From: a candidate division FCPU426 bacterium
GTDB lineage: Bacteria > Oederibacteriota > Muellerivitia > Muellerivitales > DAHXKG01
Assembly (NCBI GenBank): GCA_027366525.1
Contig: DAHXKG010000003.1
Span: 72,097-136,096 of the forward strand
Length of the DNA: 64,000 nt
Reading direction: 5' to 3'
Shown here one piece after another: positions 14,657-43,147 of this stretch (its first letter is position 1; each line of letters opens with the position of its first letter). Position numbers and translations under genes: made by a program. The notes under the pieces were generated by a model. That model had not been told where the DNA came from. It saw nothing but the letters and a program-made list of their open reading frames with translations, and ran no database searches.

Positions 14657-14661
14657 ATTTC

Positions 14662-15615: not shown

Positions 15616-15656
15616 ATGCAGGAACCCTAGTTTAAGTACGAAAGCCAAATACAGGG

Positions 15657-17354: not shown

Positions 17355-17364
17355 ACATTGGTAT

Positions 17365-19296: not shown

Positions 19297-19439
19297 AATT
19301 CACCTCGTACGTTGATTAGTAATGAAACCGTATTTCAAGCGGATAATTTTCAAACTTAGAATATCATCAAGAGGGCCTCAATGTTGAGAAAAAGAAACAG
19401 GCAAAGAGGAATTCGTTTTACTTGTAAGATGTTCAAAAA

Positions 19440-20891: not shown

Positions 20892-23800
20892 ATGATAAAA
20901 AAAATACTTTATACGGGATCATTTGAGGTACTAGAAAAAGGATTGGCTCAGGAACTAAAGACGTTTCAATCCAAAAAAGAACTTTCAGAACTCAAGATAA
21001 TCGTTCCTAATTTTCAATTAACACATTATTTAAAATTGGAAATGTCTAAACGTCTTGGATTTTTGTTTAATATCGAATTTAAAACCTTACATGATTTTTT
21101 AAAAACAACTATTCAGGAGAAGCAGATTCAAGAAGATTGGAAAATAATTCCAGATGAAATAATTCCTCATGTTTTGAAAAATCTTTTGCAATTACCCATG
21201 GATGTTCCAAGTTATTTTCAATCCGTTCGAGAGACTTCTGGCTTTTATCGATTATTGGCGAATACGATTATGGATATCCATCAAGGATTATTTGATTCAC
21301 AAACGATTCGTAAAGCGGTTCAGCGCTATTCTAATAATAAAAGTTATCGTCAACGGACTAAAAAATGGGAAGAAATAGCAAAGTATGTTGAGATCTATGG
21401 TAATTGGAAGAAAGATAAAAAAATTTTAGATAGTTCAGACTTATATTATCAGAGTTTGAATTTGGTTTTGAAAAGCCCCATTTGGATTTATGGATTTTAT
21501 GATGCAACAGCTTTGCAAAAAAAAATATTAAAGCATGTAACATCATTTTATCCATCAATATGGTTTGTTCCCTATGAAGATAAAAAGGCGTATGGGTATG
21601 CTGAGCCCTTTTTAAAATGGATTCAATCTTTGAGTTCAAAGCCAACCCACATGGATTTTGAAAATGCAGTGAGTGAGAACATGTATCAGTTACGAGAAGT
21701 ATTATTTGAAGATAAACCAAATCAACCGATGTTGGATATTAAAAATAGTTGTAAAGTAATTTTATCGTCGAATGTGGAACAAGAAATCAGCGATGCCGTC
21801 AAATATTCGATCAAATATCTTGAAAAAGACAAAGATAAACAAGCACCCCGATCCATCGCTTTTTTATTAAGGTACAGCGATCCATATCTAAAAGTATTTA
21901 AACCCGTACTAGAGTCGCTACAAGTGCCTTATGGATTTCATTTGCCACAACCATTAAATGAATGCGCGGAGAGCCGAATTATTAGCTTGCTACTAACCTG
22001 TTTAGAAGATGGATGGATGCCGGAATGGGTTATATCAATCTTAAGTTCGCCGAAAATTCAATGGAAATTCTTTAAGATTCACCAAAGCAAATGGAATAGG
22101 ACCAATTGGATTTTTGAAATTCGAAAAGCCTATAAGCAATTTGGAGATCATTGGATGAGCAAGATTTATTCGAAAGAATCTCGAACGTCGAACTCCAATA
22201 TAAACTTAGATTTAATGAACGTAATTCATGTACTCCAAAAAATGAAAGTGGAATTTCAAAATCAAAAAACCATATTCCAAAAAATGGAATATTTGGTGAA
22301 AAAAATTTCACAATTATTTTTAGAAACCGATATTCAAAAAAAAATACTGGGAAAATTAAAAAATTTTGAGGAGTTCATGAATCCGCTGGATCTTTTAAAT
22401 CAAGAAAAGCTAAGTGTTATTGTTCAATCATTAATGAACTCCAAAATATATGCCATGAATCAAGACATCAATGGAATTCAAATTGTTGATATTATGGAAA
22501 CGCGAGGCGTATCATTTGACATAGTAATCCTTCCAGGCTTGATTGAAAAATGGGTGCCTCAGTTTTTGCCACAAGATCCAATATTATTAGATGACGAACG
22601 ATCCATTTGGAATCAAATGAGTGAAGGAGAACAATATCTTCCATTAAAATCCGATCTACTATTAGAAGAGCGGCTTTTATTCTATTTATCTGTTTGTAGT
22701 GCTAAAAAACTTTTAATTGTTTCAGCTCCCATATGGGATTTGTATGATGGCAATCCACAAATAATTTCTAGCTACCTTTTTCAACTTTTGAATCTTTTAT
22801 ATCCTCAAATTGATTTCAAAATTCATCACCTGATTCAACAAACTGAAAATGTCTTTTCAATTTTCCCTGAAAAATTAGAAAATTGCGTATCAGAAATGGA
22901 TTTTTTATTATTTTATGGAAAAAGAAGCCTTCAAAAAAATTCTAACGATTTCTTTTCAATAGCTCAATCAATTCCATTTTTTATAGAAGGATTGCAATTA
23001 ATTCAACATCGAAATTTACCTACATTTACTTCGTTTGATGGAATGATTCAACCCCATCAAACATTAAATGATGTCAACTTACATAATTGGACAGCCTCAA
23101 AATTTGAAACTTATTTACAGTGCCCTATGCAGTATTTTTATCAATATATATTAAATTTGGATGTTGAGTCAAACGATCAAGATGCACTGCGCGTGGGAGC
23201 GGATCAAAAAGGACAATGGATACACCGATTTTTGGAAAAGTGCGTCCGATTTGGTTTGGAGCATCATTGGTTTGATGGGAACTTAAAACAAGTGGAGTCG
23301 CAAGAAGTGGAATCCATATATGATCAAATCAGCCAAGAATTTTCAGAATCGAATTCGCGGAGTGAAAATATTTTTTGGAAAAATGAATCCCTTCAATTGA
23401 AATTTCGGATGGTTCAAATATTAAAACGAATATTGGAAGATCAACAATGGGTGCCTTGGAAAGTTGAAGTCCCTTTTGATGAACAGGGTCAATTTGTGAA
23501 TTTTCCATTACATAATGGGAAAACCATTCGACTAAGAGGAAAAATCGATCGTATTGATATTTCGAGAGACCAGAAGAATCTACGAGTGGTCGATTATAAA
23601 TCAGGGCAGCTTTCAAATTACCCAGAAAAAGATATTCAAGAGGGCAAAAAAATTCAATTACATGTCTATGCTTGGATTTGTAAACATAATTATCCAGATA
23701 AAGATGTCGAATCCGCTCGGTATGAGTTTATTGATCAAGATAAAAAAAAATATTCTAGAAATGGACCCTCGCTTAAACCTTTTAAACAATTTGAGGAAAA

Positions 23801-23993
23801 ATTGTCTCAGTGGCTTCAAAACATTTGTGAAGCAGTAGAACTTGGCAAGTTTCCGTCCTATTTTAATATTGCCAAACCTCCTTGCGACTATTGTAAATTT
23901 AAAATGAATTGTGGAACCGAAATGAAATCAAGAGCAGAATTCAAACAACAAGATCTACAAATACAATTTTTAAAAGAAAAAGTGGATTTTTAA
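20892..23993 (+). CDS. addB: AddB/RexB-like helicase-nuclease subunit
   Basis: C-terminal PD-(D/E)XK motif LRVVDYKSGQ and Fe-S Cys cluster CDYCKFKMNC; 1033 aa; immediately upstream of addA and overlapping it. Confidence 0.7.
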   Translation: MIKKILYTGSFEVLEKGLAQELKTFQSKKELSELKIIVPNFQLTHYLKLEMSKRLGFLFNIEFKTLHDFLKTTIQEKQIQEDWKIIPDEIIPHVLKNLLQLPMDVPSYFQSVRETSGFYRLLANTIMDIHQGLFDSQTIRKAVQRYSNNKSYRQRTKKWEEIAKYVEIYGNWKKDKKILDSSDLYYQSLNLVLKSPIWIYGFYDATALQKKILKHVTSFYPSIWFVPYEDKKAYGYAEPFLKWIQSLSSKPTHMDFENAVSENMYQLREVLFEDKPNQPMLDIKNSCKVILSSNVEQEISDAVKYSIKYLEKDKDKQAPRSIAFLLRYSDPYLKVFKPVLESLQVPYGFHLPQPLNECAESRIISLLLTCLEDGWMPEWVISILSSPKIQWKFFKIHQSKWNRTNWIFEIRKAYKQFGDHWMSKIYSKESRTSNSNINLDLMNVIHVLQKMKVEFQNQKTIFQKMEYLVKKISQLFLETDIQKKILGKLKNFEEFMNPLDLLNQEKLSVIVQSLMNSKIYAMNQDINGIQIVDIMETRGVSFDIVILPGLIEKWVPQFLPQDPILLDDERSIWNQMSEGEQYLPLKSDLLLEERLLFYLSVCSAKKLLIVSAPIWDLYDGNPQIISSYLFQLLNLLYPQIDFKIHHLIQQTENVFSIFPEKLENCVSEMDFLLFYGKRSLQKNSNDFFSIAQSIPFFIEGLQLIQHRNLPTFTSFDGMIQPHQTLNDVNLHNWTASKFETYLQCPMQYFYQYILNLDVESNDQDALRVGADQKGQWIHRFLEKCVRFGLEHHWFDGNLKQVESQEVESIYDQISQEFSESNSRSENIFWKNESLQLKFRMVQILKRILEDQQWVPWKVEVPFDEQGQFVNFPLHNGKTIRLRGKIDRIDISRDQKNLRVVDYKSGQLSNYPEKDIQEGKKIQLHVYAWICKHNYPDKDVESARYEFIDQDKKKYSRNGPSLKPFKQFEEKLSQWLQNICEAVELGKFPSYFNIAKPPCDYCKFKMNCGTEMKSRAEFKQQDLQIQFLKEKVDF

Positions 23994-26900
23994 TGGATTC
24001 AATACCCCCAACTGCAAATGCTCAAACTGGTGATTGGGATATTCGAAAGGAAATTATTCAAACTACCAAAAACGTGTTAATCGATGCAGGGGCGGGAACA
24101 GGTAAAACTACGCTCCTGTTAGAACGTATACTTTTTTTAATTGAAAATCAAAAAATACCACTGACTAAAATGGTGATTATCACATTTACTGACCAAGCAG
24201 CCAATGAATTAAAAGAGCGTCTAAGAACTGTTATATATAATAAATTTCAAAAAGCATCTTCAACCAATCGGGATTTTTTTTGGAATGCATTTGAATCGCT
24301 AGAAAAATCAAAAGTAAGTACCATTCATTCATTTTGTTCATCAATTTTAAAAGAATTTCCCATCGAATCAGGGGTGGATCCTCAATTCCGAATTTTAGAG
24401 GAATTTCAAAAAAAGCATTTCGAATCTCAATGCTGGGAACAATGGATTCAGAATTGGCAAATGAAAAGTCCCGATGTTTTCTTCAATGCCACTCAATTAG
24501 GAATTTCTACGGCTGATATTTATCGGTTAAAAGAAAACATGAAAAATCAGCAATATTCAAGTTTGTTTATCAATCAAAGACTACCCGATGGGACTGAACT
24601 TCGCAAAAAAATGGGAGAAAAACTTCATGAATTTTGGAACACTGAAATTCGGTGTCATCAAAAAGATGATCGACTTTATCAGGATTTGATTCAATTACGA
24701 AAAGAATTTTCAGAGTTTGAGAATAACTCTTCCTTTTTTTCAAAATCCAATACGATCTTTTTTAATGAGCAAGGTGAATTAAAATCATTTCAGAAGCGTG
24801 GAAACCAATCGAATTGGGATTCGGTAGAACAATTAAATAAAATTCGAGATACATTTGATGCCATCGGGCAGAGCATGAATCGTTATGTCCAAGAATTTGA
24901 GGATGTCGTTTTAAAAAATCTTGAAAATGAGTTATTGGCATATGTTCAATACTATCAATTCCAAAAAATCAAACATGGCTTTTTAGACTATGATGATTTG
25001 ATTTTAAAAACTAGAGATTTATTGCAAAGTTATCCTGAAATTCGACAAGAACTTAAACACCGATTTGATAAAATTTTTGTCGATGAATTTCAGGACACAG
25101 ATCCGATTCAAATGGAAATTTGCTTTTTTTTGTCTGAAAAAAACGGAGCCCATGAAAAAGAATTGAAACACATTCAACTTCAGGAAGATAAACTCTTTTT
25201 AGTAGGAGATCCCAAGCAAAGCATTTATCGATTTCGAAAGGCCGATATTGAATTATATCAATCCATTAGGAAATATTTTTTAAGCAATGATTCAACGGAG
25301 GTCAAAATACTTAGCTCGAATTTTAGAACGGTTCCAAAGCTAATTGAATGGATTAATTCAAAATTTTTAAATTTAATACCCGAATATATATCTTTGCAGT
25401 CAAATCAATGCCGGACGAGTGACCAGTATATACCAGAAGTAAAAATCATTCAGGTGGAAATAGAATCTAAAAATGCTGATGATCAACGGGAAAAAATGGC
25501 GTTCCAAATTGCTCAATGGATTCGTGAAGAGTTGCTTTCTCATCAATTTAAAATTCAAGATCCAGAAACCAAAATGGAACGGTGGATTCAGGAAAAAGAT
25601 ATTGCTATTTTGTTTGATAAATTAGAACCTCAGGAAAATTTTTTTCAATTTGCTTTTGAAAAATATCATATTGCTTATCAAATTATTGGGGGCAAACGAT
25701 TTTATTCACAACCTGAAGTGGTTACGTTCCAGACTCTTTTAGAATGTCTTAGTGAGCCCAGTAACGAATCTAAATCTGTAGCAGTTTTAAGAAGTAGTAT
25801 TTTTGGATTTTCAGATCAAGAGTTGTATGAAATCCATCAGTCTGGACAGCCTTTTAATTTTCTTTTAGAAATTCCAACGGGAAAATTGCCAAAAGCATTG
25901 CATGAAAAACTTTGTCAGACCTTTAATATGTTAAAAAATTGGTATGAGCGAATACCAACTTTTTCAACGTCCGAAGCAGTTGTATGGATATTGGAGCAAA
26001 CAAACTTAATAGCTTTAAGCTTCGTTCGCAGTCGAACGGAACAAATTATTCTGAATTTGAAGAAACTGGTTCACCTATCAAAAAAATTAGAAACTAGCGA
26101 AAAATTGACTTTTGCAGAATTTTCAAATTGGTTGGGTAATCAAATTAAAAATAAACAATTCGATGAGCAAGTTCAAAATCCTGATTTAAACGAAAATTTA
26201 ATTAAACTGATGACAATCCATAAAAGTAAGGGACTTGAATTTCCGGTTGTGATCGTTGTTGGAAGCGAAGAATCTATAAGTGATCAATTTCTATGGAATG
26301 CTCAGCAAATGAGGCTGGAATATAAATTAAAATCTCATAAAACTGCTGGTTTTGAGGCATTGCTTCAACGAGAAGAAAAATACAGTATAGACGAGCAAAT
26401 GCGGCTGCTCTATGTGGCATGTACGCGTGCGCGGGATGCTTTAATTATTTTCACTCCTCAAAATTCCGATAAAAATTTTTCATATCCACTCATGAAATTG
26501 TTAAATGAAACGGAGCGGACATCATTAAAAATTGATAATAAAAAACACGAAGAAACTAAACGCATACAATCGATTGCAATTGCTTCCCAGCAGAATGGTT
26601 ATCAATTTCCTCAAAATTCAAACGAGGGAAATCTTCTAAAAGAAATTAATTTTCAAAAGGAAACATGGCTTCAACTCGTAAAAACAAAATTAATACATTC
26701 TACTATAAATCATCCACATCAAACTGAACCTGTTCAAAGCCATCAGGACGATCAATCTCAACGCAACCCAAATAGTTTTGAAGTTTCACCTGAACAGTTA
26801 GGGATTTTTGTTCATGCCATGTTGAAAAAATATCTGGATAATACTTTGAATTTTTCAAAAAAAGATTTTGAAAAATGGGGTAAAGTTTACTCATTTAAGA

Positions 26901-27241
26901 AATCAGTTATAGACGAATGTTTTACGTGGATTCAATTGGCTTTAACCTCGAAGGTCATTCAACGTGCCCGGGATTCAAAAAAAACATTCACAGAGCTTCC
27001 TATTACGTTTTTTAATGCAGCTCTGCAACACTGGGATACTGGAATTATTGATTTAGCCTTTCTTGAAAATGAAAAGTGGATTCTTTTAGATTATAAGACC
27101 GATAAAACAAAACAATTTTTAGACTCGTATAAATTGCAAATTGAATTTTATTCAGAATTGTTAAATAAGAGTACCCCGTATCCTGTTTTTCAGAAATATA
27201 TTTATTTTTTAAGATTAAAGGATTTGGAAGAAATAGTTTAA
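23993..27241 (+). CDS. addA: AddA/RexA-like ATP-dependent helicase-nuclease (UvrD-like helicase plus C-terminal RecB-type nuclease)
   Basis: Walker A DAGAGTGKTT; helicase motif II IFVDEFQDTDPIQ; C-terminal LLDYKTDK nuclease motif; ATG overlaps addB stop as TAATG (ORF track start 23909 trimmed to this ATG). Confidence 0.85.
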   Translation: MDSIPPTANAQTGDWDIRKEIIQTTKNVLIDAGAGTGKTTLLLERILFLIENQKIPLTKMVIITFTDQAANELKERLRTVIYNKFQKASSTNRDFFWNAFESLEKSKVSTIHSFCSSILKEFPIESGVDPQFRILEEFQKKHFESQCWEQWIQNWQMKSPDVFFNATQLGISTADIYRLKENMKNQQYSSLFINQRLPDGTELRKKMGEKLHEFWNTEIRCHQKDDRLYQDLIQLRKEFSEFENNSSFFSKSNTIFFNEQGELKSFQKRGNQSNWDSVEQLNKIRDTFDAIGQSMNRYVQEFEDVVLKNLENELLAYVQYYQFQKIKHGFLDYDDLILKTRDLLQSYPEIRQELKHRFDKIFVDEFQDTDPIQMEICFFLSEKNGAHEKELKHIQLQEDKLFLVGDPKQSIYRFRKADIELYQSIRKYFLSNDSTEVKILSSNFRTVPKLIEWINSKFLNLIPEYISLQSNQCRTSDQYIPEVKIIQVEIESKNADDQREKMAFQIAQWIREELLSHQFKIQDPETKMERWIQEKDIAILFDKLEPQENFFQFAFEKYHIAYQIIGGKRFYSQPEVVTFQTLLECLSEPSNESKSVAVLRSSIFGFSDQELYEIHQSGQPFNFLLEIPTGKLPKALHEKLCQTFNMLKNWYERIPTFSTSEAVVWILEQTNLIALSFVRSRTEQIILNLKKLVHLSKKLETSEKLTFAEFSNWLGNQIKNKQFDEQVQNPDLNENLIKLMTIHKSKGLEFPVVIVVGSEESISDQFLWNAQQMRLEYKLKSHKTAGFEALLQREEKYSIDEQMRLLYVACTRARDALIIFTPQNSDKNFSYPLMKLLNETERTSLKIDNKKHEETKRIQSIAIASQQNGYQFPQNSNEGNLLKEINFQKETWLQLVKTKLIHSTINHPHQTEPVQSHQDDQSQRNPNSFEVSPEQLGIFVHAMLKKYLDNTLNFSKKDFEKWGKVYSFKKSVIDECFTWIQLALTSKVIQRARDSKKTFTELPITFFNAALQHWDTGIIDLAFLENEKWILLDYKTDKTKQFLDSYKLQIEFYSELLNKSTPYPVFQKYIYFLRLKDLEEIV

Positions 27242-27384
27242 ATAATCATAAAGCGTTCACTACAAAAGAGTTGAACAAAGTCGCTACCCAAACTCCTTGC
27301 TCAGAAATAATAACTATTTGATGGGTTCCACCATATAAAGTAAAATTATTTCTGCAATAGGACGGCGGAAAATAGATTAGTTAA

Positions 27385-28776
27385 TCAATTAATATTGAGA
27401 AAGGTCTTAACCTTTGAAGCGGCTAAATAACCAGAAAGGCAAGCACTTTCTATAGTAGCTGGAAGATGCGTTTGAGTCCAATCTCCCGCTAAAAAAATAT
27501 TTTGAAAGGATGTTTCAGAACTGGGCCTTAGCGCATCATTAGTTTGGTTCCAAACAAAGGTAGCGGCCATTTCGCGAGTAACCTTTGAATACAATATTTT
27601 TAAATCAGGGTTAATTTTAAATCGTGAACGTAACACTTTTTCTGCTTCTTGAATCCAAAAAGCATCTGAATTAAGAGTGTCTTGGGAAGACGCGCTTCGA
27701 ACCAGAGATAAGTATTGTTCTTGAGTTTGATAATTCCAATTTTGTGTTTGATTAAATATCCAATCAAAAGGTGAATAAGGCAAACCCAGAAATGGTTCGT
27801 GAAAAATAGCTTGGGATAAGACCAGATGAACGGACATAATGGATGATTTGCCTAAGGATTCAAAATTCAAAGTTCGGATCCACTCTGCATTTAAAGAAAA
27901 TCGATGGATGGAATAAGGAGGAATAGCAAGAATTAAAGCATCTCCGGAAAAGCATTTTTGATTTTTTGAAATCAATTCAAAAGTCTTATTTTGAATTTTG
28001 ATTTCCTGAATTCCTTCGTGATAATGAATCAAGCCATGATTTGATTCGAAAATTTTTTTAAAATTAGGGAAGAAAATTTCACTTAAGGGTTTTGAAAAAA
28101 AAACAAGACGACTATCCATGATCGATTGAAAAAAAGCTTGAGAGAATACTTCTCCTAAGGAACGAATAAGAGCGACTTGGGGTGGTAAATTCAAGATGGA
28201 TTTACACAAGGGATTCCAAAAAAGCTCTTGGGTATTAGGGGACGCCTTTATATAAGACAAAAAATCTTCGACTGTAACAAGATGAGTGGGGAGTGAAAAA
28301 GGTTTCTTTTTAAATCGATGAAGGGATTGAACCAAATTCATTTTATCTTTCCAAGTAAAAGCTTTAGAGTTCCAAAGGCCAAATAAAAGATGAAAGGGTG
28401 CGGGAAGATTGGAGCAGTGTAAAACCTGTTTTTGCTGATTTGGAAGGACCCAGCTTAATTGAAGGGGATGCATCATAGTTAGTTGGGATAGGGCATTTAT
28501 TTTTTTGAAAAGGCGTAAAGTTTCATGATAACACCCCATCATCAGGTGGGGTCCGTTATCGATTGGGAAGGGAAAATTTTGAGTAGGTGGAAAAGAGTAA
28601 AAACGGCCACCGAGCATCCCACGTGATTCGATAAGTTCAACTTGTACATTAGGGCTTTGGAGTTCTAAGGCTGCTGAAGCTCCAGCAAATCCTCCGCCCA
28701 CGATGATAACTTTTTTCATGCCAATAACCTCAGATGGAATTATTTTTCTCGAAGCCAAAGCTTCCAAAGCAAGCAT
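27385..28776 (-). CDS. hpnE: FAD-dependent amine-oxidase-family desaturase, hydroxysqualene dehydroxylase HpnE-like
   Basis: VIIVGGGFAGASAALEL dinucleotide-binding motif; sits directly after two squalene/phytoene-synthase-family genes. Confidence 0.6.
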   Translation of the reverse strand: MLALEALASRKIIPSEVIGMKKVIIVGGGFAGASAALELQSPNVQVELIESRGMLGGRFYSFPPTQNFPFPIDNGPHLMMGCYHETLRLFKKINALSQLTMMHPLQLSWVLPNQQKQVLHCSNLPAPFHLLFGLWNSKAFTWKDKMNLVQSLHRFKKKPFSLPTHLVTVEDFLSYIKASPNTQELFWNPLCKSILNLPPQVALIRSLGEVFSQAFFQSIMDSRLVFFSKPLSEIFFPNFKKIFESNHGLIHYHEGIQEIKIQNKTFELISKNQKCFSGDALILAIPPYSIHRFSLNAEWIRTLNFESLGKSSIMSVHLVLSQAIFHEPFLGLPYSPFDWIFNQTQNWNYQTQEQYLSLVRSASSQDTLNSDAFWIQEAEKVLRSRFKINPDLKILYSKVTREMAATFVWNQTNDALRPSSETSFQNIFLAGDWTQTHLPATIESACLSGYLAASKVKTFLNIN

Positions 28777-33634: not shown

Positions 33635-33711
33635 GGACGTTTAGCTCAGTCGGTTAGAGCGTCGCGTTCACATCGCGAAGGTCACTGGTTCGAGTCCAGT
33701 AACGTCCACCA
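33635..33711 (+). tRNA. tRNA-Val (anticodon CAC), CCA encoded
   Basis: cloverleaf by eye: acceptor GGACGTT/AACGTCC, D-arm AGCTCAGTCGGTTAGAGC, anticodon stem TCGCG/CGCGA with loop TTCACAT, T-arm GGTTCGAGTCC, 3' ACCA. Confidence 0.85.
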
Positions 33712-34987: not shown

Positions 34988-36639
34988 AAGGGCTCTATGG
35001 ATTCGTGAAATTGATGAGCAATGGGAAATCGGCGACCGATTCCAAATGATTTTGGTGTTACTTTGAGTCCAGGTGGAAGTTGATGTCGTTTGTACTCGGC
35101 ATGGTCTAATTTATCTAGAATGGATGGAATGGAAATGGAGGTGGAGTTCAAATTTTGAATTTGAGACAGCGTTTGGTTGTCTTCAACATACGCTTTTAAA
35201 ACGCGATCCAAAAGTTCATATGGAGGAAGCGAATCTTGATCCGTTTGATTTAGTTTTAGCTCAGCAGAAGGAGGTTTAGTGAAGACGGCGGTTGGAATAA
35301 AAGCTTGATTACGGTTTGCATAAGTCGCGAGCTGATAAACCATGGTTTTGGGAATATCGGCGATTACGGCTAAACCGCCACACATATCTCCATATAACGT
35401 GCAATACCCAACCGATAATTCACTTTTATTTCCTGTAGTTAAAAGTAAATAATTGAATTTGTTGGAAAAAGACATCAAAATTGTTCCTCGAATTCGAGCT
35501 TGTAAATTTTCCTCCGTAATGTCCGGTTTGGAATTTGAAAAATGAGGAGAAAAAATGCTTAGGAATTTTTTATACAATGGAGTAATAGGAATAACTTTGA
35601 ATTCAATGTTTAGGGCTTGAGATAGTTGCTGAGAGTCTAAAATGCTTCCTTTGGAAGAAAAAGGAGAAGGCAAAGTAATTCCAAGAACATTGGCGGGACC
35701 TAAAGCTTCAACAGCTAAACAGGCCACCAAAGAGGAATCAATACCACCCGATAGGCCGATTAAGGCTTTAGTGAATCCACATTTTTGGGTATAATCACGA
35801 ATACCAAGAACTAAAGCTTTGAAAATACTTTCAGTTTCTGTTTTCGAAGTGGGGTGAATATTTTTGTGAGCCGGGGTATGTGTGTCATAGGGTAGAAAGC
35901 CTTCTTGAAAATCTTTTGCAAGTTGTAAAATTTCACCTTGAGCATTTGTTATCATGCTGCATCCATCGAAAATCAATTCATCATTACCGCCGACAAGATT
36001 GCAATAGAAAACAGGAGCGTTTACTTTTTGAGCAGTTATTTTGAGAATATTTTGTCGAATCGGGAGTTTCGCCATATGAAAGGGAGAAGCGGAAAGATTA
36101 ATGAGCATATCTACATGACTAGTCATTAAAGGTTGAATTGGATTTAAATGGTATTTGGGTGGTTTGAAAAAATCAGTGTGATTCCAAATATCTTCACAAA
36201 TGGTAATCCCAATTTTGTGTCCTAGATATTCAAACGGCTTTTCAACAATCGAGGCGGGTTCAAAATAACGCGCTTCATCAAAAACATCATAGTTGGGCAA
36301 AAGCGATTTTTTTTGTACATATAAAATTGCCCCATTTTTCACAATGACGGCAGCATTATATAATGAATTTCCAGATCCTGGATTAGGAAGGATAGTTCCA
36401 AGCAAGGTTGCAAGTCCTTCACTCGAGCGCGCAATGGCCATTAGTGCTTGTTGTGCTTGATCAATAAAACTCGGACGTTCTAAAAGATCGCGCGGGGGAT
36501 ATCCGGTTAGAACTAATTCGGGAAAAACGATTAAGTCATATGATTGAGCGCGTAGCTGCTTTTGAATAGCTGCAATCTTTTGAATATTCGATTTAAAATT
36601 TCCAATAATGGTATTAATTTGGCAGAGCGCAATTTTCAT
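34984..36639 (-). CDS. nadE: glutamine-dependent NAD+ synthetase (nitrilase domain plus PP-loop NAD synthase domain)
   Basis: N-terminal CN-hydrolase domain (MKIALCQIN...); PP-loop GLSGGIDSS; 551 aa. Confidence 0.9.
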   Translation of the reverse strand: MKIALCQINTIIGNFKSNIQKIAAIQKQLRAQSYDLIVFPELVLTGYPPRDLLERPSFIDQAQQALMAIARSSEGLATLLGTILPNPGSGNSLYNAAVIVKNGAILYVQKKSLLPNYDVFDEARYFEPASIVEKPFEYLGHKIGITICEDIWNHTDFFKPPKYHLNPIQPLMTSHVDMLINLSASPFHMAKLPIRQNILKITAQKVNAPVFYCNLVGGNDELIFDGCSMITNAQGEILQLAKDFQEGFLPYDTHTPAHKNIHPTSKTETESIFKALVLGIRDYTQKCGFTKALIGLSGGIDSSLVACLAVEALGPANVLGITLPSPFSSKGSILDSQQLSQALNIEFKVIPITPLYKKFLSIFSPHFSNSKPDITEENLQARIRGTILMSFSNKFNYLLLTTGNKSELSVGYCTLYGDMCGGLAVIADIPKTMVYQLATYANRNQAFIPTAVFTKPPSAELKLNQTDQDSLPPYELLDRVLKAYVEDNQTLSQIQNLNSTSISIPSILDKLDHAEYKRHQLPPGLKVTPKSFGIGRRFPIAHQFHESIEPL

Positions 36640-36988
36640 ATTTTGAAACCAGTGCAGAAATGGTGTAAATGCCTATTTTACTTGGATTAAATTAGGATGT
36701 CAAAAAGCATTCTGCTGTTAAAAACGAATAAATCCGGTAATATTAAGAGATAACCGGATATCCATTAATCCATGGAAGGATCCGGTCAGTGATGGAACAA
36801 CGAAAAACTTTGTGGAATTGTTAAGAGGTTTTCTCTTTTGCTGAAGCCGTTTTGTGCTTTCTAGACGTCCTCAAAACCTTTCCTGCAAATAAGGAAGCAC
36901 GGTCTCTCGACCGAGGATTTCTCTAACCAATACGTCTAGATAATCTTCATTAAAATCCATTGAAATCTCGATGGATTTTAAAATCTTT

Positions 36989-38257
36989 TCAAAAATTTTT
37001 CAACATAAGCTTTTCAGTTAAAGGATGATTGATTAAGAAATTGGACAAGTCACTTTCTTCAATTAATGAAGAGTGTGAATCAGGATGAAGAGATAATGAA
37101 ATGACAAATTTTAAAATAGATTTAGATGACGGAGAGATAACGGTTAGAAAGCCACTATGATGATAAAGAATGAGCAGAAAGCTTAACAAATAAGCACCTT
37201 GATCATTGGGCATGGTGGGTAAGTTTAACGAAGGGTTTAAAATTGCTAACCACGCCTCTTGAAATAAGTTAAGCCCGTTGAATAATACTTCGATTTGAAC
37301 TTGCTGAGTCGACAGAGTCGGGTCAAAGGACAAAGAAGTTAATTGAATCGATAAAGGTTGATCAGATATTTGTAGAGCCTCTTTTAAGAGAAATTCAAAG
37401 AAGGAGTCAAACCGATTTTGGTCGACGGGGAGAGGAGGAAGATCCTTTGAAATTAAGTTATCGACACGTATAGATTTTTTATTGAGGTCTGTTTTGAATT
37501 TTTGGATCGATGAATTCAAAAGCGCTTCAAGGGATAAGGTGTTTTGAAAGACAGGTGGCTTGGAAGGAATGACAGGCCAAAAAGGATTAAGAATATCCAT
37601 AACCCGGTGCATTTTAGTTTGGATAGTTTGATAATAATTATTCCAAAATTGTGAAGAATAAAAAATGTTGTTAGGGGGAGGATCATTTTCTACCAATTCA
37701 TTTGGATTAAATTGGAGAAAAGTTTGAATGGCACGAGTGGCATGCAAGATGTAGGGATTACACACTAAAGAAAAAAGACCCAGACTAAGGATGCGGTCAG
37801 TTAACATAATATAGTGGAGTGAAGAAATTTTTTCTTTTAATAGAGAATCTCGTTCCTGTTGAATTGAAAAAAAATCTAGACTTCGCTTCAGTGTCATGGA
37901 TAAATGATTAAAATCCCAGGGTTTAGTGACATATTTGTAAATTTGCCCACTATTGACTGCTTGAATAGCGGATTCAAGGTCAGCATAGGCGGTTATAAGA
38001 ATTCGAACAATTTGTGGATGAGCCCGTCGAACTCGTTCAAGGAAATCCACCCCTTTTTCTCCGGGCATGACTTGATCGGTAATAATAATTCCGATTTCTT
38101 GTTCACACTCTTGGATAATATTCCACCCTTCTTGAGTTGAAGAGGCAGTGAAAATTGTAAATTGCTCCTCAAAGGTTTTCCTGAAATATTTTAAAGCTAG
38201 AATTTCATCATCAATATACAAGATTTTATATTGTTTGTAATTCGTAAGTGATTCCAT
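36989..38257 (-). CDS. PhcR-like response regulator: receiver domain fused to a degenerate histidine-kinase-like domain
   Basis: REC motifs (IDDEI, TDQVMP, TKPW); following domain aligns with the 16077..17354 product but lacks G1/G2 ATP-binding boxes; last gene of the methyltransferase-kinase-regulator operon. Confidence 0.6.
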   Translation of the reverse strand: MESLTNYKQYKILYIDDEILALKYFRKTFEEQFTIFTASSTQEGWNIIQECEQEIGIIITDQVMPGEKGVDFLERVRRAHPQIVRILITAYADLESAIQAVNSGQIYKYVTKPWDFNHLSMTLKRSLDFFSIQQERDSLLKEKISSLHYIMLTDRILSLGLFSLVCNPYILHATRAIQTFLQFNPNELVENDPPPNNIFYSSQFWNNYYQTIQTKMHRVMDILNPFWPVIPSKPPVFQNTLSLEALLNSSIQKFKTDLNKKSIRVDNLISKDLPPLPVDQNRFDSFFEFLLKEALQISDQPLSIQLTSLSFDPTLSTQQVQIEVLFNGLNLFQEAWLAILNPSLNLPTMPNDQGAYLLSFLLILYHHSGFLTVISPSSKSILKFVISLSLHPDSHSSLIEESDLSNFLINHPLTEKLMLKNF

Positions 38258-38283
38258 ATGGCCTCCAAAGTAGCTATTATTTT

Positions 38284-40998
38284 TTAAACCGACTTAGGTA
38301 ACTGAATCATGCCGGGGAGTTGAATAGTAAATTCTGTAAATTTTCCTGATTCACTCTGAACTGTAATCCGGCCATTTTGATCTTTGATAATTTGATAACA
38401 AATACTTAAGCCCAAACCCAATCCTTCGCCCACATCCTTGGTGGTAAAAAATGGATCAAAAACTTTTGAAATATTTTCTGGAGCAATACCGGTTCCATTG
38501 TCTCGAATATGTAGAAATATAAAGTTGTTTTCAAAACGACTTTGAATTTGAAGAGTTGGTTTTTCATCGGAATTAAAGTTTTTATTTTTCATAGCAGTCA
38601 AAGCATTTTGAATTAAATTTAATAATACTTGAATAATTCGGTTTTTATTGACTAGAACAAAATGTTCAGATGGAATTTGAACATCAATTTGAAATAGCTC
38701 AGGAATCTCATGTTGAATAAAGGTAAGTGTTGTAGAAATCAAGGGATGAACTTGAAACCAATCTTTTCCCATTGCATTCGGATGTGCAAAGCTTTTAAGG
38801 TTAGAAATGATTTTTTGAACTCGATCTAAGCCTTCTTCCATATCTTCAATCATATCAAGTATTTGATGCTTATCAGATTGTGTAGGGGAACCATATTTTT
38901 GTTTTAAAAGGTAGAGGGCTTGTAAAACATAATTTAAAGGATTGTTAATTTCATGAATGATGCCAGCGCTAAGAGTTCCTAAGGACGCCATTTTTTCATG
39001 TTGGATCAGTTGACTTTGAGTTTGTTTTAAAAGTTCAAGCGTTTCTTGAGCTTTTTGGTTCATTAATTCCAGATCGGCTTTTTGTTGTAAAATCTTTTTT
39101 TGAAATTCATGCGATTGTAAAATATTTTTAATTCTGATTTTTAATTCTAAGATAGAAAATGGTTTGGTTAAAAAATCAGTCGCTCCAGCGTTTAATGCTT
39201 CAATTTTCATTTCATCATCGGCTCGAGCAGTTAACATAATTACAGGAATGGTTTCTGTGTTTTTATGTTGAAAAAGTTCATGGCATACATCAATGCCATT
39301 TTTCCCAGGCAGCATCATGTCCAGGAGAATAATTTCTGGAGAATTTTGGATAGCAAGATGGATACCTTGATGGCCATCATTTGCTTCTAAGATTTTAAAT
39401 TGAGACTTGAGAATTAATCTTAAAAATTCTCGCATATCGGGTTCATCGTCAATAATGAGAATAAGCGGCTTTGTGGATCGCTCTTGGGTGGCCAATGACT
39501 CTGACGGCGATGGAAATAATGAAGAAAAATGCAGAATACGGTTATGTAAGTCCATATTTAATTGTTGGAGCGGCAAAGGCGACAAATCTTTTTTGTTTTT
39601 CAACTCTGGAGTTGTACTGTTTAAGGGGGAGGGGTGGCATGGCAGGGAAACCGTAATTTGTGTTTTTTGATTTAAAACTGATTCGACTTGAATCGTTCCA
39701 TGTTGAGCATCGACGAGTTCTTTGACGATCGAAAGGCCTAAGCCGGTTCCTGAATTTTGGTAGCTAGTATTGGGATCTGCTTTCCAAAATCGATCAAATA
39801 TTTTAGAAATATTTTCGGGTGCGATGCCTTGACCAGTATCTTCAACGGACAAAATAAAGTTTTGATTTTCGTATCGGCTGATTACGGTGATGCGTCCTTC
39901 TGGCGGCGTGAATTTAATGGAATTGAAAACAAGATTGAGAATTATCTTTTCCAGTTGGATTTGATCCATTTCAATGAGGATTAAGGAGGGATCAAATTGA
40001 ACGTCTAACATAATATTTTTGGATTCAGCGATTGTGTTCAATGAGAGTAACAGTCCACGTATGAAGGTTGGAATATCTGTCGGGGTGGGATTGAATGGCA
40101 TTTTTTGGGATTCGAGTTTAATCAGATCAAGAATATCATTGATATATCGTAGGAGGCGTTGTGCATTAACACTCATCAAGTTCAAGATTTGATTGGTTTT
40201 TTCATCAAATTCTTTGGATTTTTGAATTCGCAAATCTTCCAAAGGTGAAATTAAAAGTGTCAATGGGGTACGGAGCTCATGGCTGACATTGGCAAAAAAA
40301 TTACTTTTCAAGCGATCCAGCTCTAAAAGTTGCTGATACGATTTTTCCAATAATTTTTGACTTTGATCCAATTTATATCGAAGAGAAAATTCTTGGAATC
40401 TTAACCGGCTTTGAAAATAACTGGCAATAATTACAATAACATCGGTTAAAATCAGGAAGTATAAATTATTAATAAAGATATTAACGCTGATATTGCCAGG
40501 ATGAAAAAAGCAGGCCATTGCATAAATCAAAATGACACAAGAGCCAACAATTAGATTTTCAAAAAAGGTCCATGGGAAAATGAGCCCCACACCTAAAAGT
40601 ACTAAATTTAATCCCGCGTAATAGGGCGAGGCAGCTCCTTGGCTCATATAGATCATCCAAGCAATATCGGCAATGGGCAATAAGGGAAGCATCAAACTCC
40701 AAAACCGATAATGTTTGTAAAAAAAATCAGTTTGACAGAGTATCAAAAAAAGCAAGGCAAGGAATGCCGTAAGCAAACGCGAAATTAAGAATATCTTAAA
40801 CTGATCAGGATAAATGACGTAATCCAAAACGAGGCCAAACGGAACCAAAATAATAATTAAGAGGGCTTCTAAGCGAATGTTTTTTAATCGAATTTGTTTA
40901 TCATAATCAGCATAAGCGAATTCAATATCGTGAATGGAAATGTTGGAAAAAGGTTCAGTCATGATCGGATTTTCGTATTTCCATGAAGATATTAACAC
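38284..40998 (-). CDS. polytopic hybrid sensor histidine kinase with HK-REC-HK architecture
   Basis: about 6 TM N-terminal sensor; H-box SHELRTPL plus HATPase (DTGQGI, GTGLGLSI); receiver (IIDDEPD, LLDMMLP, TKPF); second H-box IIHEINNPL plus second HATPase (DNGTGI, GLGLGLSI); probable start at MTEPF (40962). Confidence 0.85.
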   Translation of the reverse strand: MLISSWKYENPIMTEPFSNISIHDIEFAYADYDKQIRLKNIRLEALLIIILVPFGLVLDYVIYPDQFKIFLISRLLTAFLALLFLILCQTDFFYKHYRFWSLMLPLLPIADIAWMIYMSQGAASPYYAGLNLVLLGVGLIFPWTFFENLIVGSCVILIYAMACFFHPGNISVNIFINNLYFLILTDVIVIIASYFQSRLRFQEFSLRYKLDQSQKLLEKSYQQLLELDRLKSNFFANVSHELRTPLTLLISPLEDLRIQKSKEFDEKTNQILNLMSVNAQRLLRYINDILDLIKLESQKMPFNPTPTDIPTFIRGLLLSLNTIAESKNIMLDVQFDPSLILIEMDQIQLEKIILNLVFNSIKFTPPEGRITVISRYENQNFILSVEDTGQGIAPENISKIFDRFWKADPNTSYQNSGTGLGLSIVKELVDAQHGTIQVESVLNQKTQITVSLPCHPSPLNSTTPELKNKKDLSPLPLQQLNMDLHNRILHFSSLFPSPSESLATQERSTKPLILIIDDEPDMREFLRLILKSQFKILEANDGHQGIHLAIQNSPEIILLDMMLPGKNGIDVCHELFQHKNTETIPVIMLTARADDEMKIEALNAGATDFLTKPFSILELKIRIKNILQSHEFQKKILQQKADLELMNQKAQETLELLKQTQSQLIQHEKMASLGTLSAGIIHEINNPLNYVLQALYLLKQKYGSPTQSDKHQILDMIEDMEEGLDRVQKIISNLKSFAHPNAMGKDWFQVHPLISTTLTFIQHEIPELFQIDVQIPSEHFVLVNKNRIIQVLLNLIQNALTAMKNKNFNSDEKPTLQIQSRFENNFIFLHIRDNGTGIAPENISKVFDPFFTTKDVGEGLGLGLSICYQIIKDQNGRITVQSESGKFTEFTIQLPGMIQLPKSV

Positions 40999-42367
40999 CC
41001 GTTGAATCGGATAAGACGTTCACTTGTTGTGGCTTGATACAATCGGGTGCAAGGGCGGATAATTGTTGTTCATTGCGATAAATTAAAAACCATTCGGCAA
41101 AATACTCCATAATGCTTTTAGAAGGATTGGATGTATGTACGTTGGTTACAACCAGCAAGCCGTTTGGAGCGAGCTGAGTATAAAAAAAATTCATTAACTG
41201 TTTGCAAATTTTATCCGACAAATAATCAAAGAGTCCGGCACAATAAATGAGATCATACGAATTCGTGGTTATTTCATTTGATTTAAAACTTTCTTTTAAG
41301 AGTTGCGTTACTGATTTTTTGATGAAGTGAATGTCGGACTGAAAATGATTTTGCGTTTTCAATGCACGAACCAAATTTTGAACATAATTGAGAGTTTCAT
41401 CATTGAAATCAACAAGCGTAAATTCGGCATCTCGTACCGAAGATTGAGAGAGAAAATGCTGAACTTCCTGAGCAGGACCACATCCTAGGTTAAAGACTCG
41501 AATACGTTTCTTTTTTAGCGATAGCTTATACGTCTCATTTTCAATTTGTTGAATTAAATATTGAATACGATTTCGGTGAGCTTCAGCTGGTGGTGTTTTC
41601 CAGAAAAAAAAATTTATCATTTTTGAGAAAAGCGAAGATCCAATAAAAGGATTACCTAAAATCATGCGAACCATTTCATAGTCTCCGGCATATCCTAGCG
41701 GTTTATGAAAAATGCGATGCATAAAGGGGGAACAAAGGATTAATGAATGAAGTTGACGTTGGGCATAAATTCTGTGGATGGATTGAAGTTCGGGTTGAAT
41801 AATTTGTGTGATTTTTTCAAAACGACTAAAAAGGTGATAGGTAGTTTCTAAAAACGGTTTTTCTAATTTTTGAATCGTTTCCTGCTCCAATTGGGGCTGA
41901 AGTTTGGGGGAATTTGTTTGTAGTTGAAATTCAATTTGTTCTAGCCACTGTCTTAGTTCTACTAACAGAACATAGATATCGGCAATAATCACCTTGAATT
42001 CAGGAATAATAGTATTAGTTTTTTCAAATTCTTTTAAGAAATGGTCGAACTCAAGTTCTATTTGATATTTTGGATGTGTAAAAAAAAAATCGATATTAAG
42101 CCATGAATTTTCTAAAGTCGCTTCGCAAATCAAAACGATGCCTGTATTGACCAGATTACTGACCGTGGCTCGGCCTGAGTAAAGAATTTGTTCTCCCAAA
42201 ATAATTTGAAATTCGGTAAGAACTTCAGACAGTTGAATGACGCTATAAATATTATAAATTTCAAAAACAATTTGATATCTGGTTAAATGCAATGAGGTCG
42301 CTTGAAATTTAATTCCTTGACTGTTTTTCCCAATAACAAATGTATTCTTTCCAAGTGTGGAAATCAT
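40955..42367 (-). CDS. class I SAM-dependent methyltransferase with large N-terminal extension (PhcB-like architecture)
   Basis: motif I RVFNLGCGPAQE in the C-terminal half; 470 aa, versus about 467 aa recalled for Ralstonia PhcB; first gene of the operon, 8-nt overlap with the kinase gene. Confidence 0.6.
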   Translation of the reverse strand: MISTLGKNTFVIGKNSQGIKFQATSLHLTRYQIVFEIYNIYSVIQLSEVLTEFQIILGEQILYSGRATVSNLVNTGIVLICEATLENSWLNIDFFFTHPKYQIELEFDHFLKEFEKTNTIIPEFKVIIADIYVLLVELRQWLEQIEFQLQTNSPKLQPQLEQETIQKLEKPFLETTYHLFSRFEKITQIIQPELQSIHRIYAQRQLHSLILCSPFMHRIFHKPLGYAGDYEMVRMILGNPFIGSSLFSKMINFFFWKTPPAEAHRNRIQYLIQQIENETYKLSLKKKRIRVFNLGCGPAQEVQHFLSQSSVRDAEFTLVDFNDETLNYVQNLVRALKTQNHFQSDIHFIKKSVTQLLKESFKSNEITTNSYDLIYCAGLFDYLSDKICKQLMNFFYTQLAPNGLLVVTNVHTSNPSKSIMEYFAEWFLIYRNEQQLSALAPDCIKPQQVNVLSDSTGVNIFMEIRKSDHD

Positions 42368-42823
42368 AAAATTTTTAGGTACCTTGAAATTTATAATAAA
42401 TAATTTATAGACTTATTATACTCGTAAGCAGCATTGCATAGAAAAATGTAAGTAAAAAAAAGATTAATAAAAGTGTTTAAATTTTGTCCGAAATTATTAA
42501 AAGCAAATTGAGAGTGAATCGATTCAGAGAGCATGAAGTAAAAAATTTTAGTAGAGGGAGTGATGCAGTCTGCTCAATTGAGTTCGATCCGAAGTGATAT
42601 TTGTCTAAAATGTTTATAATTCCAAATGATGGATAAGCGATGGAGTAATACAAATGCTTATTTGATAAATGGATATAAAATAAATGCTTTTTTTACCTTT
42701 TAAAAAGACAACAATAAAGTGGGCCATTTATCAAAGAGCGTCCTCTTGACTCTCATGGTAAAACCAAGCATTATATAGTTAGTACTAGGTGGCTTAAGAT
42801 ATTTTTTTAAGGAGATATATGTT

Positions 42824-43147
42824 ATGGTTAATTTGACCGATGCGGCAGTTCAGAAGATCAAGGATTTTTCGACCCAGAATAGCAGTTATCAAGGCAAATT
42901 TTTTAGAGTTTTTATTCAAAGCGGTGGATGCCATGGTTTTTCGTATGGATTCACATTTGATCAAAAACGGGACAATGACGAGATTAATCAGATAAGCGAT
43001 TTGGAAGTATTGATCGATTCAGAAAGTTCAAAATATTTGAGTGGCTCTAAAATTGATTATATCGAGGATCTACACGGCGCTGGATTTGTAGTGGAAAATC
43101 CTAATGCCAAAGGGTCCTGTGGGTGTGGAAATTCTGTAAATTTTTAA
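42824..43147 (+). CDS. A-type iron-sulfur cluster carrier (IscA/ErpA/SufA family)
   Basis: GGCHGFSYGF and C-terminal GSCGCG motifs; 107 aa. Confidence 0.8.
   Translation: MVNLTDAAVQKIKDFSTQNSSYQGKFFRVFIQSGGCHGFSYGFTFDQKRDNDEINQISDLEVLIDSESSKYLSGSKIDYIEDLHGAGFVVENPNAKGSCGCGNSVNF

Follow-up and report, generated by a model that had tools for sequence, protein, structure and literature searches.

A sensor kinase with two transmitter cores around an internal receiver, encoded in a three-gene cassette that resembles the Phc system

The stretch of DNA analysed here (64,000 nucleotides of contig DAHXKG010000003.1 from a candidate division FCPU426 bacterium; hereafter the window) encodes on its minus strand a large sensor kinase, flanked upstream by a gene for a methyltransferase-like protein and downstream by one for a receiver protein of 422 residues. 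The kinase is built from a membrane domain, a DHp-CA kinase core with its phospho-acceptor at H240, a receiver domain (REC) with its phospho-acceptor at D560, and a second DHp-CA core with its phospho-acceptor at H682. Its open reading frame (ORF), 38284..40998, is unbroken and extends to a GTG start at 40998, giving a protein of 904 residues, and residue numbers refer to this frame unless marked as M13 numbering, which counts from M13. Translation probably begins at the ATG at 40962 (M13; 892 residues), since two near-identical database proteins, P0001 and P0361, are both gene-called at 892 residues and this ATG overlaps the stop codon of the upstream gene by 8 nt (ATGACTGA). The gene and its parts are as follows.

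38284..40962, minus strand: sensor kinase coding sequence, 892 residues from the ATG at 40962 (the longest ORF reaches the GTG at 40998)
40384..40962, minus strand: N-terminal multi-helix membrane sensor domain, residues 13–205, MASE8-like and PhcS-type (AlphaFold2 model, block hidden Markov model, BLASTP)
40327..40383, minus strand: first signalling helix, residues 206–224 (alignment of long and short forms across the junction; AlphaFold2 helix)
39634..40326, minus strand: kinase core 1 (HK1), residues 225–455, HisKA-type DHp plus CA (Pfam and conservation)
39472..39633, minus strand: CA1-to-REC tether, residues 456–509 (variable length, low model confidence)
39115..39471, minus strand: internal receiver (REC), residues 510–628 (Pfam Response_reg, 97.9 bits)
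39004..39114, minus strand: second signalling helix (alpha-S), residues 629–665, from REC alpha5 to DHp2 (linker lengths, AlphaFold2 helix)
38308..39003, minus strand: kinase core 2 (HK2), residues 666–897, HEINNPL-type DHp plus CA, PhcS-type core (Pfam and conservation)

Pfam recognises two HisKA, two HATPase_c and one Response_reg domain in the whole kinase, and the same list of domains is shared by all of 120 full-length homologs found in a large protein collection (874–908 residues, 42–48% identity, at least 95% coverage). It is from the names of these homologs, at 42–48% identity, that the kinase family takes its label of Verrucomicrobiota, and it is to their alignment that all conservation counts for the kinase refer. 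Independent assemblies contain the ORF as well: at least three Logan contigs that stem from different sequencing runs carry it, as do contigs ~250 kb long of other origin.

In core 1 the H box SHELRTPL lies at 239–246, with H240 encoded at 40279–40281, the G1 box DTGQGI at 387–392 and the G2 box GTGLGLSI at 417–424; H240, N359, D387/G389/G391, F401/F404 and G417/G419/G421 are each present in 120 of the 120 sequences. Core 2 has its H box, IIHEINNPL, at 680–688 (H682 encoded at 38953–38955), its G1 box, DNGTGI, at 833–838 and its G2 box, GLGLGLSI, at 859–866. Here too the residues H682, N794/N798, D833/G835/G837 and G859/G861/G863 are invariant, and the F box is nearly so (F847 in 118 homologs, F850 in all 120). 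Scanned separately, core 1 scores 53.9 bits for HisKA and 95 bits for HATPase_c, and core 2 scores 27.0 bits for HisKA, where the cutoff is 26.9, and 80.1 bits for HATPase_c. The E/DxxT/N phosphatase motif is established for HisKA-family kinases, and its position is kept in both DHp domains, as T244 in the first and N686 in the second (120/120 each). In the receiver, which carries the motifs DDEPD (517–521), LLDMMLP (558–564) and TKPF (611–614), the phospho-acceptor D560 is encoded at 39319–39321, and D517, D518, D560, T590 and K612 are all found throughout the 120 homologs. These are the motifs that an earlier note, written from the sequence alone, had quoted for the two cores and the receiver, and all of them stand at the places that it implied. 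Its description of two intact kinase cores around one canonical receiver is borne out by the Pfam domains, by the five key residues of the receiver and by the catalytic residues conserved in the homologs, and alignment of the two DHp domains finds the phospho-acceptor histidine invariant in each. Judged by this conservation, the two transmitter cores are each complete, and purifying selection acts on both.

Are the two cores copies of one another? A recent internal tandem duplication is ruled out, because HK1 and HK2 share 28% identity and fall into separate subfamilies, HK1 resembling kinases of the PhoR, WalK and PnpS types and HK2 those of the AtoS and ZraS types. The sequences that follow the phospho-acceptor are strongly different, HELRTPLTLL in DHp1 against HEINNPLNYV in DHp2. 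As for the receivers, the internal REC resembles those of the PhoB, RpaA and PleD types, and that of the downstream protein resembles HupR/NtrC-type receivers.

The lengths of the segments that join these domains bear on how signals might pass along the protein. H240 lies 50 residues beyond the membrane domain in all 120 homologs. In the AlphaFold2 model of the kinase (mean predicted local distance difference test score, pLDDT, 83) helices extend to residue ~152 and are followed by a single long helix; this continuous helix spans residues 160–251 (M13 numbering) and runs from the last membrane helix past H240. Between REC and HK2 the distance from K612 to H682 is 63 residues in 118 of the homologs and 70 in the remaining two, with no other lengths. 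These two are P0001, which is the database counterpart of the window protein, and P0068; the window kinase thus carries, relative to the 118, an insertion of seven residues (one heptad) in the REC-to-HK2 helix, and the insertion of the same length in P0068 is independent and unrelated in sequence. Here again the model predicts an unbroken helix, residues 604–690 (M13 numbering), from REC alpha5 through H682. As modelled, the linker pattern fits a rigid helical coupling of the sensor to HK1 and of REC to HK2.

Hybrid kinases that transfer the phosphoryl group within the molecule are expected to have a variable tether before REC. Between core 1 and the internal receiver the distance from G421 to D517 ranges from 95 to 121 residues across the homologs, the mean identity to the window protein in the tether is 12%, and the model has a pLDDT below 50 at residues 448–496 (M13 numbering). 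Such a tether fits, on the model, a mobile receiver able to take the phosphoryl group from HK1. In the family as a whole the tether is variable and rich in proline and alanine, and carries, right before the receiver, a conserved amphipathic motif with the consensus SEEWLANLYRRAELFPAL, of which the window copy has diverged; this motif may be a docking or an autoinhibitory element.

Comparison of orthologous cassettes indicates that HK1-REC is an optional module of the sensor. The long form, in which the membrane domain is followed by HK1, REC and HK2, is found in the window and at the loci L001, L002 and L006–L012, and a short form of ~450–510 residues, in which the membrane domain is followed by HK2, occupies the same cassette at L014, L017, L019 and L051. 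The short form reads ...RY.LDK / QN..LESTI.QLKETE...HEINNPL, where the stroke marks the junction, and in the long forms HK1-REC is set precisely between LD[KQ] and QN..LES, within the signalling helix; alignment of the two forms places the upstream junction of the module after LD[KQ], at residues 210–212 of the window protein. The DHp2 helix that follows the histidine is nearly alike in a short form (L014) and a long one (L006). The helix segments that flank the module, ELDKNRKALEESNQKL and KLSKQNQALESTIEQL, are identical at 6 of 16 positions, a value that is reached by 1.65% of shuffles, and their likeness is suggestive only.

An exhaustive search with the membrane domain gave 1,167 cluster representatives (E ≤ 1e-3). 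Among the best 149 of these, 52 are long forms and 30 are short forms (median 469 residues), with the rest mostly fragments, and the long form is the commonest class in the family on this count of the best 149 of 1,167. Long and short forms are interleaved in trees of their shared parts. Raw parsimony on neighbour-joining bootstraps gives 12–17 gains or losses, a count that we take as an overestimate, inflated by a poorly resolved tree. Four short forms are each nearest to a different long form, by 6–12 identity points, and the short form of L014 nests among long forms; these margins, together with the nesting, support at least four or five independent gains or losses of HK1-REC, as far as can be read from the sequences.

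Other arrangements are also seen. Two proteins with the same membrane domain depart from both forms: P0411 (960 residues) has HK1-REC followed by a second core of HK1 type, and P0478 (845 residues) has about 230 residues of unidentified sequence after the receiver. Kinase-receiver-kinase proteins encoded in single ORFs with other N-termini occur in metagenome-assembled genomes of Phaeospirillum (L016:4320-7385), Pirellulales (L078:3957-7166) and Omnitrophota (L065:5377-8046), the last of these with two receivers, and these instances imply that the design is scattered across phyla.

The architecture, which the earlier note had called uncommon, is already known from LvrA of Leptospira, and within the present family the long form is the commonest class. 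LvrA comprises a PAS domain, a DHp-CA core (H218), a REC domain (D524) and a second DHp-CA core (H616), and phosphorylates LvrB (REC-DHp-CA), whose gene lies in the same operon (PMC5863495). The LvrA data have been read as showing transfer from H218, the first histidine, to D56 of LvrB, and the pathway is described as branched (PMC5863495). LvrB is the structural prototype of the Rec-controlled kinases; it is activated by phosphorylation of its REC domain, and when unphosphorylated is locked in an inactive state by the arrangement of REC and alpha-S (PMC13269768).

Among NCBIfam models, the window kinase is matched best by that of LvrA, NF047465 (hybrid_HK_LvrA), in a single alignment over residues 206–895 with a score of 286 bits; this is below the LvrA ortholog cutoff of 1200 bits, and the kinase is thus not an LvrA ortholog. 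Its C-terminal half (537–895) matches LvrB from end to end, as the best match by sequence in the PDB (E 2e-30), and a fold search with the AlphaFold2 model of the kinase likewise ranks LvrB first (~400 columns, 24–26% identity), a match that supports the topology only, because TM-scores are low (0.17–0.38) where the placement of the domains differs. Both LvrA and the window kinase have the core order of sensor, DHp-CA, REC and DHp-CA, and both are encoded beside a REC-DHp-CA protein. LvrA, however, is cytoplasmic with a PAS sensor, whereas the window kinase has a multi-helix membrane domain; the partner of the window kinase, unlike LvrB, is without kinase motifs; and the window cassette adds a methyltransferase. 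The kinase has the LvrA-type architecture, with an adjacent gene for a REC-DHp-CA partner whose topology is confirmed by alignment and by fold and which is catalytically decayed in this genome.

Within this architecture the REC-HK2 part shares with the Rec-controlled kinases LvrB and PhcR a single alpha-S helix from REC to DHp-CA, changes of linker length in steps of a heptad, and a conserved phospho-acceptor Asp and His. Those kinases are free-standing and are fed in trans, whereas the Rec-HK unit of the window kinase is fused behind its own upstream kinase. With its modelled continuous helix and its heptad linker, REC-HK2 has the geometry of a Rec-controlled kinase, and the switching itself is predicted. 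The HK1-REC part is like that of hybrid kinases of the ArcB, BarA, TorS, LuxQ and ShkA type, including the flexible CA-REC tether. In hybrid kinases the phosphoryl group moves on from REC to an HPt domain or protein; in the window kinase, in contrast, REC precedes a full second kinase and there is no HPt.

The kinase is the middle gene of a cassette whose other elements are the following.

40955..42367, minus strand: upstream gene, 470-residue PhcB-like class I S-adenosylmethionine-dependent methyltransferase (JGI name; homology to Paraburkholderia)
36989..38257, minus strand: downstream gene, 422-residue PhcQ-like protein, REC plus DHp/CA-like domain (alignment, AlphaFold2 and Foldseek, JGI names)
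36950..36981, no strand assigned: 14-bp perfect hairpin directly 3' of the 422-residue gene (inverted repeat, no T-run after it on the coding strand)

In the window the upstream gene overlaps the kinase gene and the downstream gene lies 26 nt past the kinase stop codon. The same order, with a methyltransferase-like protein (~470–540 residues), the sensor and a receiver protein of ~420 residues encoded in overlapping or tightly spaced genes, recurs in distant relatives, and the synteny of the cassette is seen in 11–12 orthologous loci. The JGI label on the window methyltransferase and on many of its homologs is 'extracellular factor (EF) 3-hydroxypalmitic acid methyl ester biosynthesis protein', the product name of PhcB, and that on many homologs of the downstream protein is 'probable response regulator PhcQ'.

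These names point to the quorum-sensing operon phcBSRQ of Ralstonia (PMC8578825, PMC11960443, PMC13320629). There, PhcB (464–468 residues) is the signal synthase; PhcS is a membrane kinase that autophosphorylates at H230; PhcR, a receiver joined to a kinase domain, is reported to be phosphorylated by PhcS; and PhcQ, a receiver without a DNA-binding domain, binds and stabilises PhcA (PMC8578825, PMC11960443, PMC13320629). For PhcS, a parallel action on PhcR, PhcQ and ChpA has been proposed (PMC8578825, PMC11960443, PMC13320629). Our comparison was made by way of Paraburkholderia proteins and JGI names, with Ralstonia represented by lengths and key residues only.

Among plasmids, a tblastn search found one full-length relative of the methyltransferase, on pPHS1_P of Paraburkholderia graminis (36.9% identity, 96% coverage). 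It stands at the head of an operon that encodes, in order, this methyltransferase (468 residues), a kinase (445 residues) and two regulators (134 and 344 residues). Residues 9–190 of the window kinase (M13 numbering) align by BLASTP with residues 4–185 of this PhcS-like kinase. The core of the latter (186–442) aligns best with HK2 (36% identity, 187 bits) and not with HK1, and the block models give the same picture, scoring the Paraburkholderia kinase at 128 bits with the MASE8-like membrane domain, 204 with HK2 and 50 with HK1. The 344-residue PhcQ-like regulator is 33% identical to the downstream 422-residue protein over REC and about 60 residues more.

Whether the membrane domain is called MASE8 (Pfam PF20968, gathering cutoff 26.2 bits) depends on the version of the Pfam model. 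In the precomputed annotations from Pfam v.4 it is listed unmarked (E ≤ 1e-5), whereas the local v.2 model gives no match on the window kinase and scores of 15.5 bits on P0004 and 17.6 bits on the PhcS-like protein. Pfam found nothing significant in the isolated N-terminal domain, and a literature search on MASE8 returned almost nothing.

In what respects, then, does the window cassette resemble Phc? The two share the gene order of methyltransferase, membrane kinase and receiver protein or proteins; the window methyltransferase has 470 residues, compared with 464–468 for Ralstonia PhcB; and the membrane domain and HK2 core are homologous to those of the Paraburkholderia PhcS-like kinase. Counted from the N-terminus, the phospho-acceptor of PhcS, H230 (H233 in Paraburkholderia), is as far along the chain as the first histidine of the window kinase, residue 228 from M13. 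The Ralstonia logic, in which a kinase acts on a REC-kinase (PhcR) and this in turn on PhcQ, is similar to that proposed for the window sensor. There are differences, however. In the window cassette no separate phcR gene stands between those for the sensor and the PhcQ-like protein, the REC-kinase unit being found only inside the sensor, which carries an additional HK1-REC unit; its PhcQ-like protein has 422 residues, compared with 336–344, with a kinase-like C-terminal domain; and the cassette comes from another phylum than Ralstonia. We conclude that the cassette resembles Phc in gene order and, by sequence comparison, in two of its three proteins. The gene at its head appears to encode a PhcB-type methyltransferase, and that at its end a PhcQ-type receiver protein whose C-terminal domain differs in length. 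A description of the sensor as PhcS fused to PhcR was rejected: the PhcS-like core is HK2, so that the extra piece is HK1-REC and not REC-HK2.

The downstream protein has an intact receiver (D16, D17, D61, T89 and K112). Its window copy is without the H-box His, the G1 Asp and the F box, and among 120 homologs it is the only such case: 119 of the 120 keep an H box (SHHIRN, which aligns with IHEINN of HK2), the G1 Asp and the FDPF F box, and the N-box Asn and the G2 glycines are missing throughout the family. The earlier note had spoken of a downstream pseudokinase regulator. This holds for the present genome, in which a receiver is joined to a decayed kinase, and not for the family; the pseudokinase state is a lineage-specific end state. 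At two other genome loci, L010 and L012, the downstream protein is likewise without the His, and its loss in all three suggests that the output has no strict need of it.

The AlphaFold2 topology of the downstream protein is a REC domain, a long helix, a helical hairpin and an alpha/beta domain, and Foldseek places LvrB first among its matches (~390–397 columns, E 2e-16), followed by the DHp-CA part of ZraS. A search of PDB sequences with the window protein found matches to the receiver only, and Pfam found nothing significant in the C-terminal 283 residues. An LvrC-like identity, with REC joined to an anti-sigma-type Bergerat fold, was dropped, as both the alignment and the fold search give REC-DHp-CA, as in LvrB.

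We somewhat favour a serial cascade in which the signal would run from the sensor to HK1, to REC, to HK2 and on to D61 of the downstream protein, within a three-gene cassette of Phc-like type. The simple sensor comprises the membrane domain, a signalling helix and one HK2-type core that would address the PhcQ-like receiver, and the window version has a complete hybrid-kinase unit, the DHp-CA of HK1 and a receiver, set within that signalling helix. The membrane domain would control HK1 through the first helix. HK1 would autophosphorylate at H240 and pass the phosphoryl group to D560 of the tethered receiver, and the phosphorylated receiver would then activate HK2 through the continuous alpha5/alpha-S/DHp helix, as in LvrB. 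HK2, autophosphorylated at H682, would phosphorylate D61 of the 422-residue protein. This protein would act by protein-protein contacts, as PhcQ does on PhcA in Ralstonia, since no His or ATP-binding motifs are left in it. The net result would be a His-Asp/His-Asp cascade in one polypeptide, in which an extra ATP-driven step could provide gain, a threshold and a control point at D560. The anatomy of the domains, the conserved catalytic residues, the synteny of the cassette, the short and long orthologs with their junction, the linker lengths and the likeness of fold to LvrB are observed; each phosphotransfer, the direction in which the phosphoryl group would flow, and what the signal and the output are, we infer.

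Several lines of evidence favour this serial cascade. The catalytic residues of both cores and of the receiver are kept in 120 of 120 or nearly all of the homologs. HK2 is probably the partner of the downstream receiver, since it is the only kinase core in the short-form cassettes of L014, L017 and L019 and its DHp surface is retained in the long forms, and since the PhcS-like core of Paraburkholderia, to which it is 36% identical, comes from an operon that also has a PhcQ-like regulator. The subfamilies of the two cores and of the two receivers are counted for this pairing too. The geometry agrees with the cascade as well, with a locked REC-to-HK2 linker, a variable tether from HK1 to REC, and a C-terminal half that aligns with LvrB. 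The PhcB and PhcQ names were given by JGI to the methyltransferase and regulator families independently of each other, and there are precedents in LvrA, which phosphorylates the LvrB encoded beside it, and in PhcS, which is reported to phosphorylate PhcR. The earlier note had offered two ideas, an internal relay that feeds the downstream regulator and a logic in which one kinase inhibits the other. Of the readings considered, the relay has the best support; nothing was found that favours the other.

A number of points weigh against the serial cascade and its Phc-like setting. LvrA, the sole double kinase that has been studied, is read as passing phosphoryl groups from its first histidine, H218, directly to the receiver of its partner, as a branch. 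The TM-scores to LvrB are low, with a different placement of the domains. A test of hydrophobic periodicity for coiled coils, applied to both signalling helices, does not set the REC-to-HK2 helix apart from the tether that was taken as its control: the peak is at 3.3 residues in both, and in the tether this peak is due to the conserved amphipathic motif hidden in it. On the side of Phc, the local v.2 model of MASE8 is sub-threshold or absent; the 134-residue Paraburkholderia regulator has no resemblance to the internal REC; and the assignment consists of annotation names and a Paraburkholderia operon that is itself not annotated as phc. The Phc system has a 3-hydroxy fatty acid methyl ester as its signal and the LysR regulator PhcA as its output; no PhcA-like output regulator was identified here, and no search for PhcA was made.

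The first of these points leads to the alternative that survives best, a branched flow in the manner of LvrA, in which H240 would feed both the internal and the downstream receivers and HK2 would serve an unlinked regulator or act mainly as a phosphatase. This is the route that the LvrA authors concluded for H218 and D56 of LvrB, and the parallel feeding of PhcR, PhcQ and ChpA that is proposed for Ralstonia PhcS is of the same kind. We nevertheless consider it unlikely for the window kinase. The short-form cassettes have only an HK2-type core beside the same downstream protein, and the long forms have retained the DHp surface of HK2; moreover, the strong differences between DHp1 and DHp2, and the different subfamilies of the two receivers, make it less likely that one kinase serves both.

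Could the internal receiver instead hold the second kinase back? In that event HK2 would be the working kinase, and HK1-REC would keep it off or drain it, with the receiver inhibitory or a phosphate sink. Inhibitory C-terminal receivers are known, for example in RsbK of Bacillus cereus (PMC4574943), the phosphatase-motif residue is kept in both DHp domains of the window kinase, and the unphosphorylated REC of LvrB is repressive (PMC13269768). A pure sink, however, needs neither a length-locked, heptad-quantised helix to HK2 nor an ATP-binding site in HK1 that is invariant in 120 homologs, and LvrB, the nearest structural relative, is activated by phosphorylation of its REC domain. On balance such an arrangement seems quite improbable.

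A further alternative concerns the methyltransferase, which in place of making a quorum-sensing signal might methylate the kinase itself, for example in the signalling helix, with the membrane domain sensing something unrelated. B. cereus RsbM provides the precedent, in that it methylates RsbK, a hybrid sensor kinase encoded together with this methyltransferase and with the signalling helix as a regulatory site (PMC4574943). RsbK has one kinase core, and the window methyltransferase resembles PhcB, unlike the kinase-modifying RsbM. The window gene is translationally coupled to that of the kinase, its product has sub-threshold CheR-type matches (E 5e-4, compared with 1e-3 for the Paraburkholderia protein), and the chemistry of the product is known for no homolog from Verrucomicrobiota. 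Yet this methyltransferase is matched over its full length (36.9% identity, 96% coverage) by one that heads a phc-like operon in a beta-proteobacterium, its 470 residues fit the 464–468 of Ralstonia PhcB, it bears the JGI name of PhcB, and genes for an acyl carrier protein (ACP), a ketosynthase, a ketoreductase and a dehydratase at L001 could supply a hydroxy-acyl substrate. We therefore regard methylation of the kinase as very improbable. Finally, the hardly credible reading that two kinases have been joined in this ORF, in the assembly or by gene fusion, or that one core is a dead remnant, could draw on the HisKA match of core 2, barely at the Pfam cutoff (27.0 against 26.9 bits), and is refuted by the recurrence of the same unbroken ORF in independent assemblies, by its length of 874–908 residues across the 120 homologs, by the conservation, in either core, of the H, N, G1, F and G2 positions and by HATPase_c scores of 95 and 80 bits. 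The two doubts that the earlier note had attached to its own claim, a degenerate box in one core and an assembly fusion, are thereby removed, all boxes of both cores proving conserved on alignment.

We see the double-kinase architecture alone as of modest interest, a further example of the LvrA design. What appears to be new is the context, in which, from the comparison of cassettes, this design is tied to a Phc-like system and HK1-REC is an optional insert in the signalling helix. The earlier note had not touched on the cassette, on orthologs with a single core or on the place of HK1-REC in the helix. The Phc-like cassette is present in well over a hundred Verrucomicrobiota sequences. The identical junction point in orthologs with and without HK1-REC implies that a whole kinase-receiver tier can be inserted into, or excised from, a working sensor, and the long and short orthologs constitute a natural experiment on the origin of multi-step phosphorelays and on the gain, threshold and inputs that an added tier may bring. 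The change of the REC-HK2 linker by whole heptads only provides independent support for the coiled-coil activation model derived from LvrB.

To our knowledge, almost no cell-cell signalling has been described in Verrucomicrobiota, and a search of the available literature found no relevant paper linking PhcB or Phc-type signalling to Verrucomicrobia. We put forward only tentatively, as a conjecture that may well prove wrong, that Verrucomicrobiota widely carry a Phc-type system, composed of a synthase for fatty acid methyl esters, a membrane sensor and a PhcQ-like effector, whose sensor exists in two interconvertible forms, one plain and one with an inserted kinase-receiver 'amplifier'. If this is true, the two forms provide natural pairs for testing the effect of an added kinase tier and the tolerance of a signalling helix for insertion of a whole module.

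Some further features of the cassette and its surroundings may be recorded. The N-terminal ~280 residues of the methyltransferase are without a Pfam match, and Pfam found nothing significant when the N-terminal 282 residues were scanned in isolation, yet conservation with the Paraburkholderia homolog extends into this region, the alignment beginning at residue 14. At L001:257-4608, directly upstream of the PhcB-like gene and in the same orientation, there are two ketosynthase-like genes and genes for an ACP, a FabA/ApeI-like dehydratase, a ketoreductase and a phosphopantetheinyl transferase, which could be a dedicated acyl-chain supply for a signal molecule; the window is without acyl-supply genes of this type. 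At L002:3017-4258 a gene for an outer-membrane channel of FadL/Toluene_X type adjoins the cassette on the opposite strand, and could be relevant to the uptake of a hydrophobic signal.

In the window itself, the operon may end at the hairpin at 36950..36981; when 36400–43000 was scanned for promoters and terminators, the counts equalled the shuffle expectation. Rfam has a single match in the window, a tRNA at 33635–33708 on the plus strand. Positions 14000–28000 have a GC content of 0.32–0.35, compared with 0.36–0.42 elsewhere, and this stretch contains two ORFs of more than 1000 residues, at 20892–23993 and 23909–27241, both on the plus strand.

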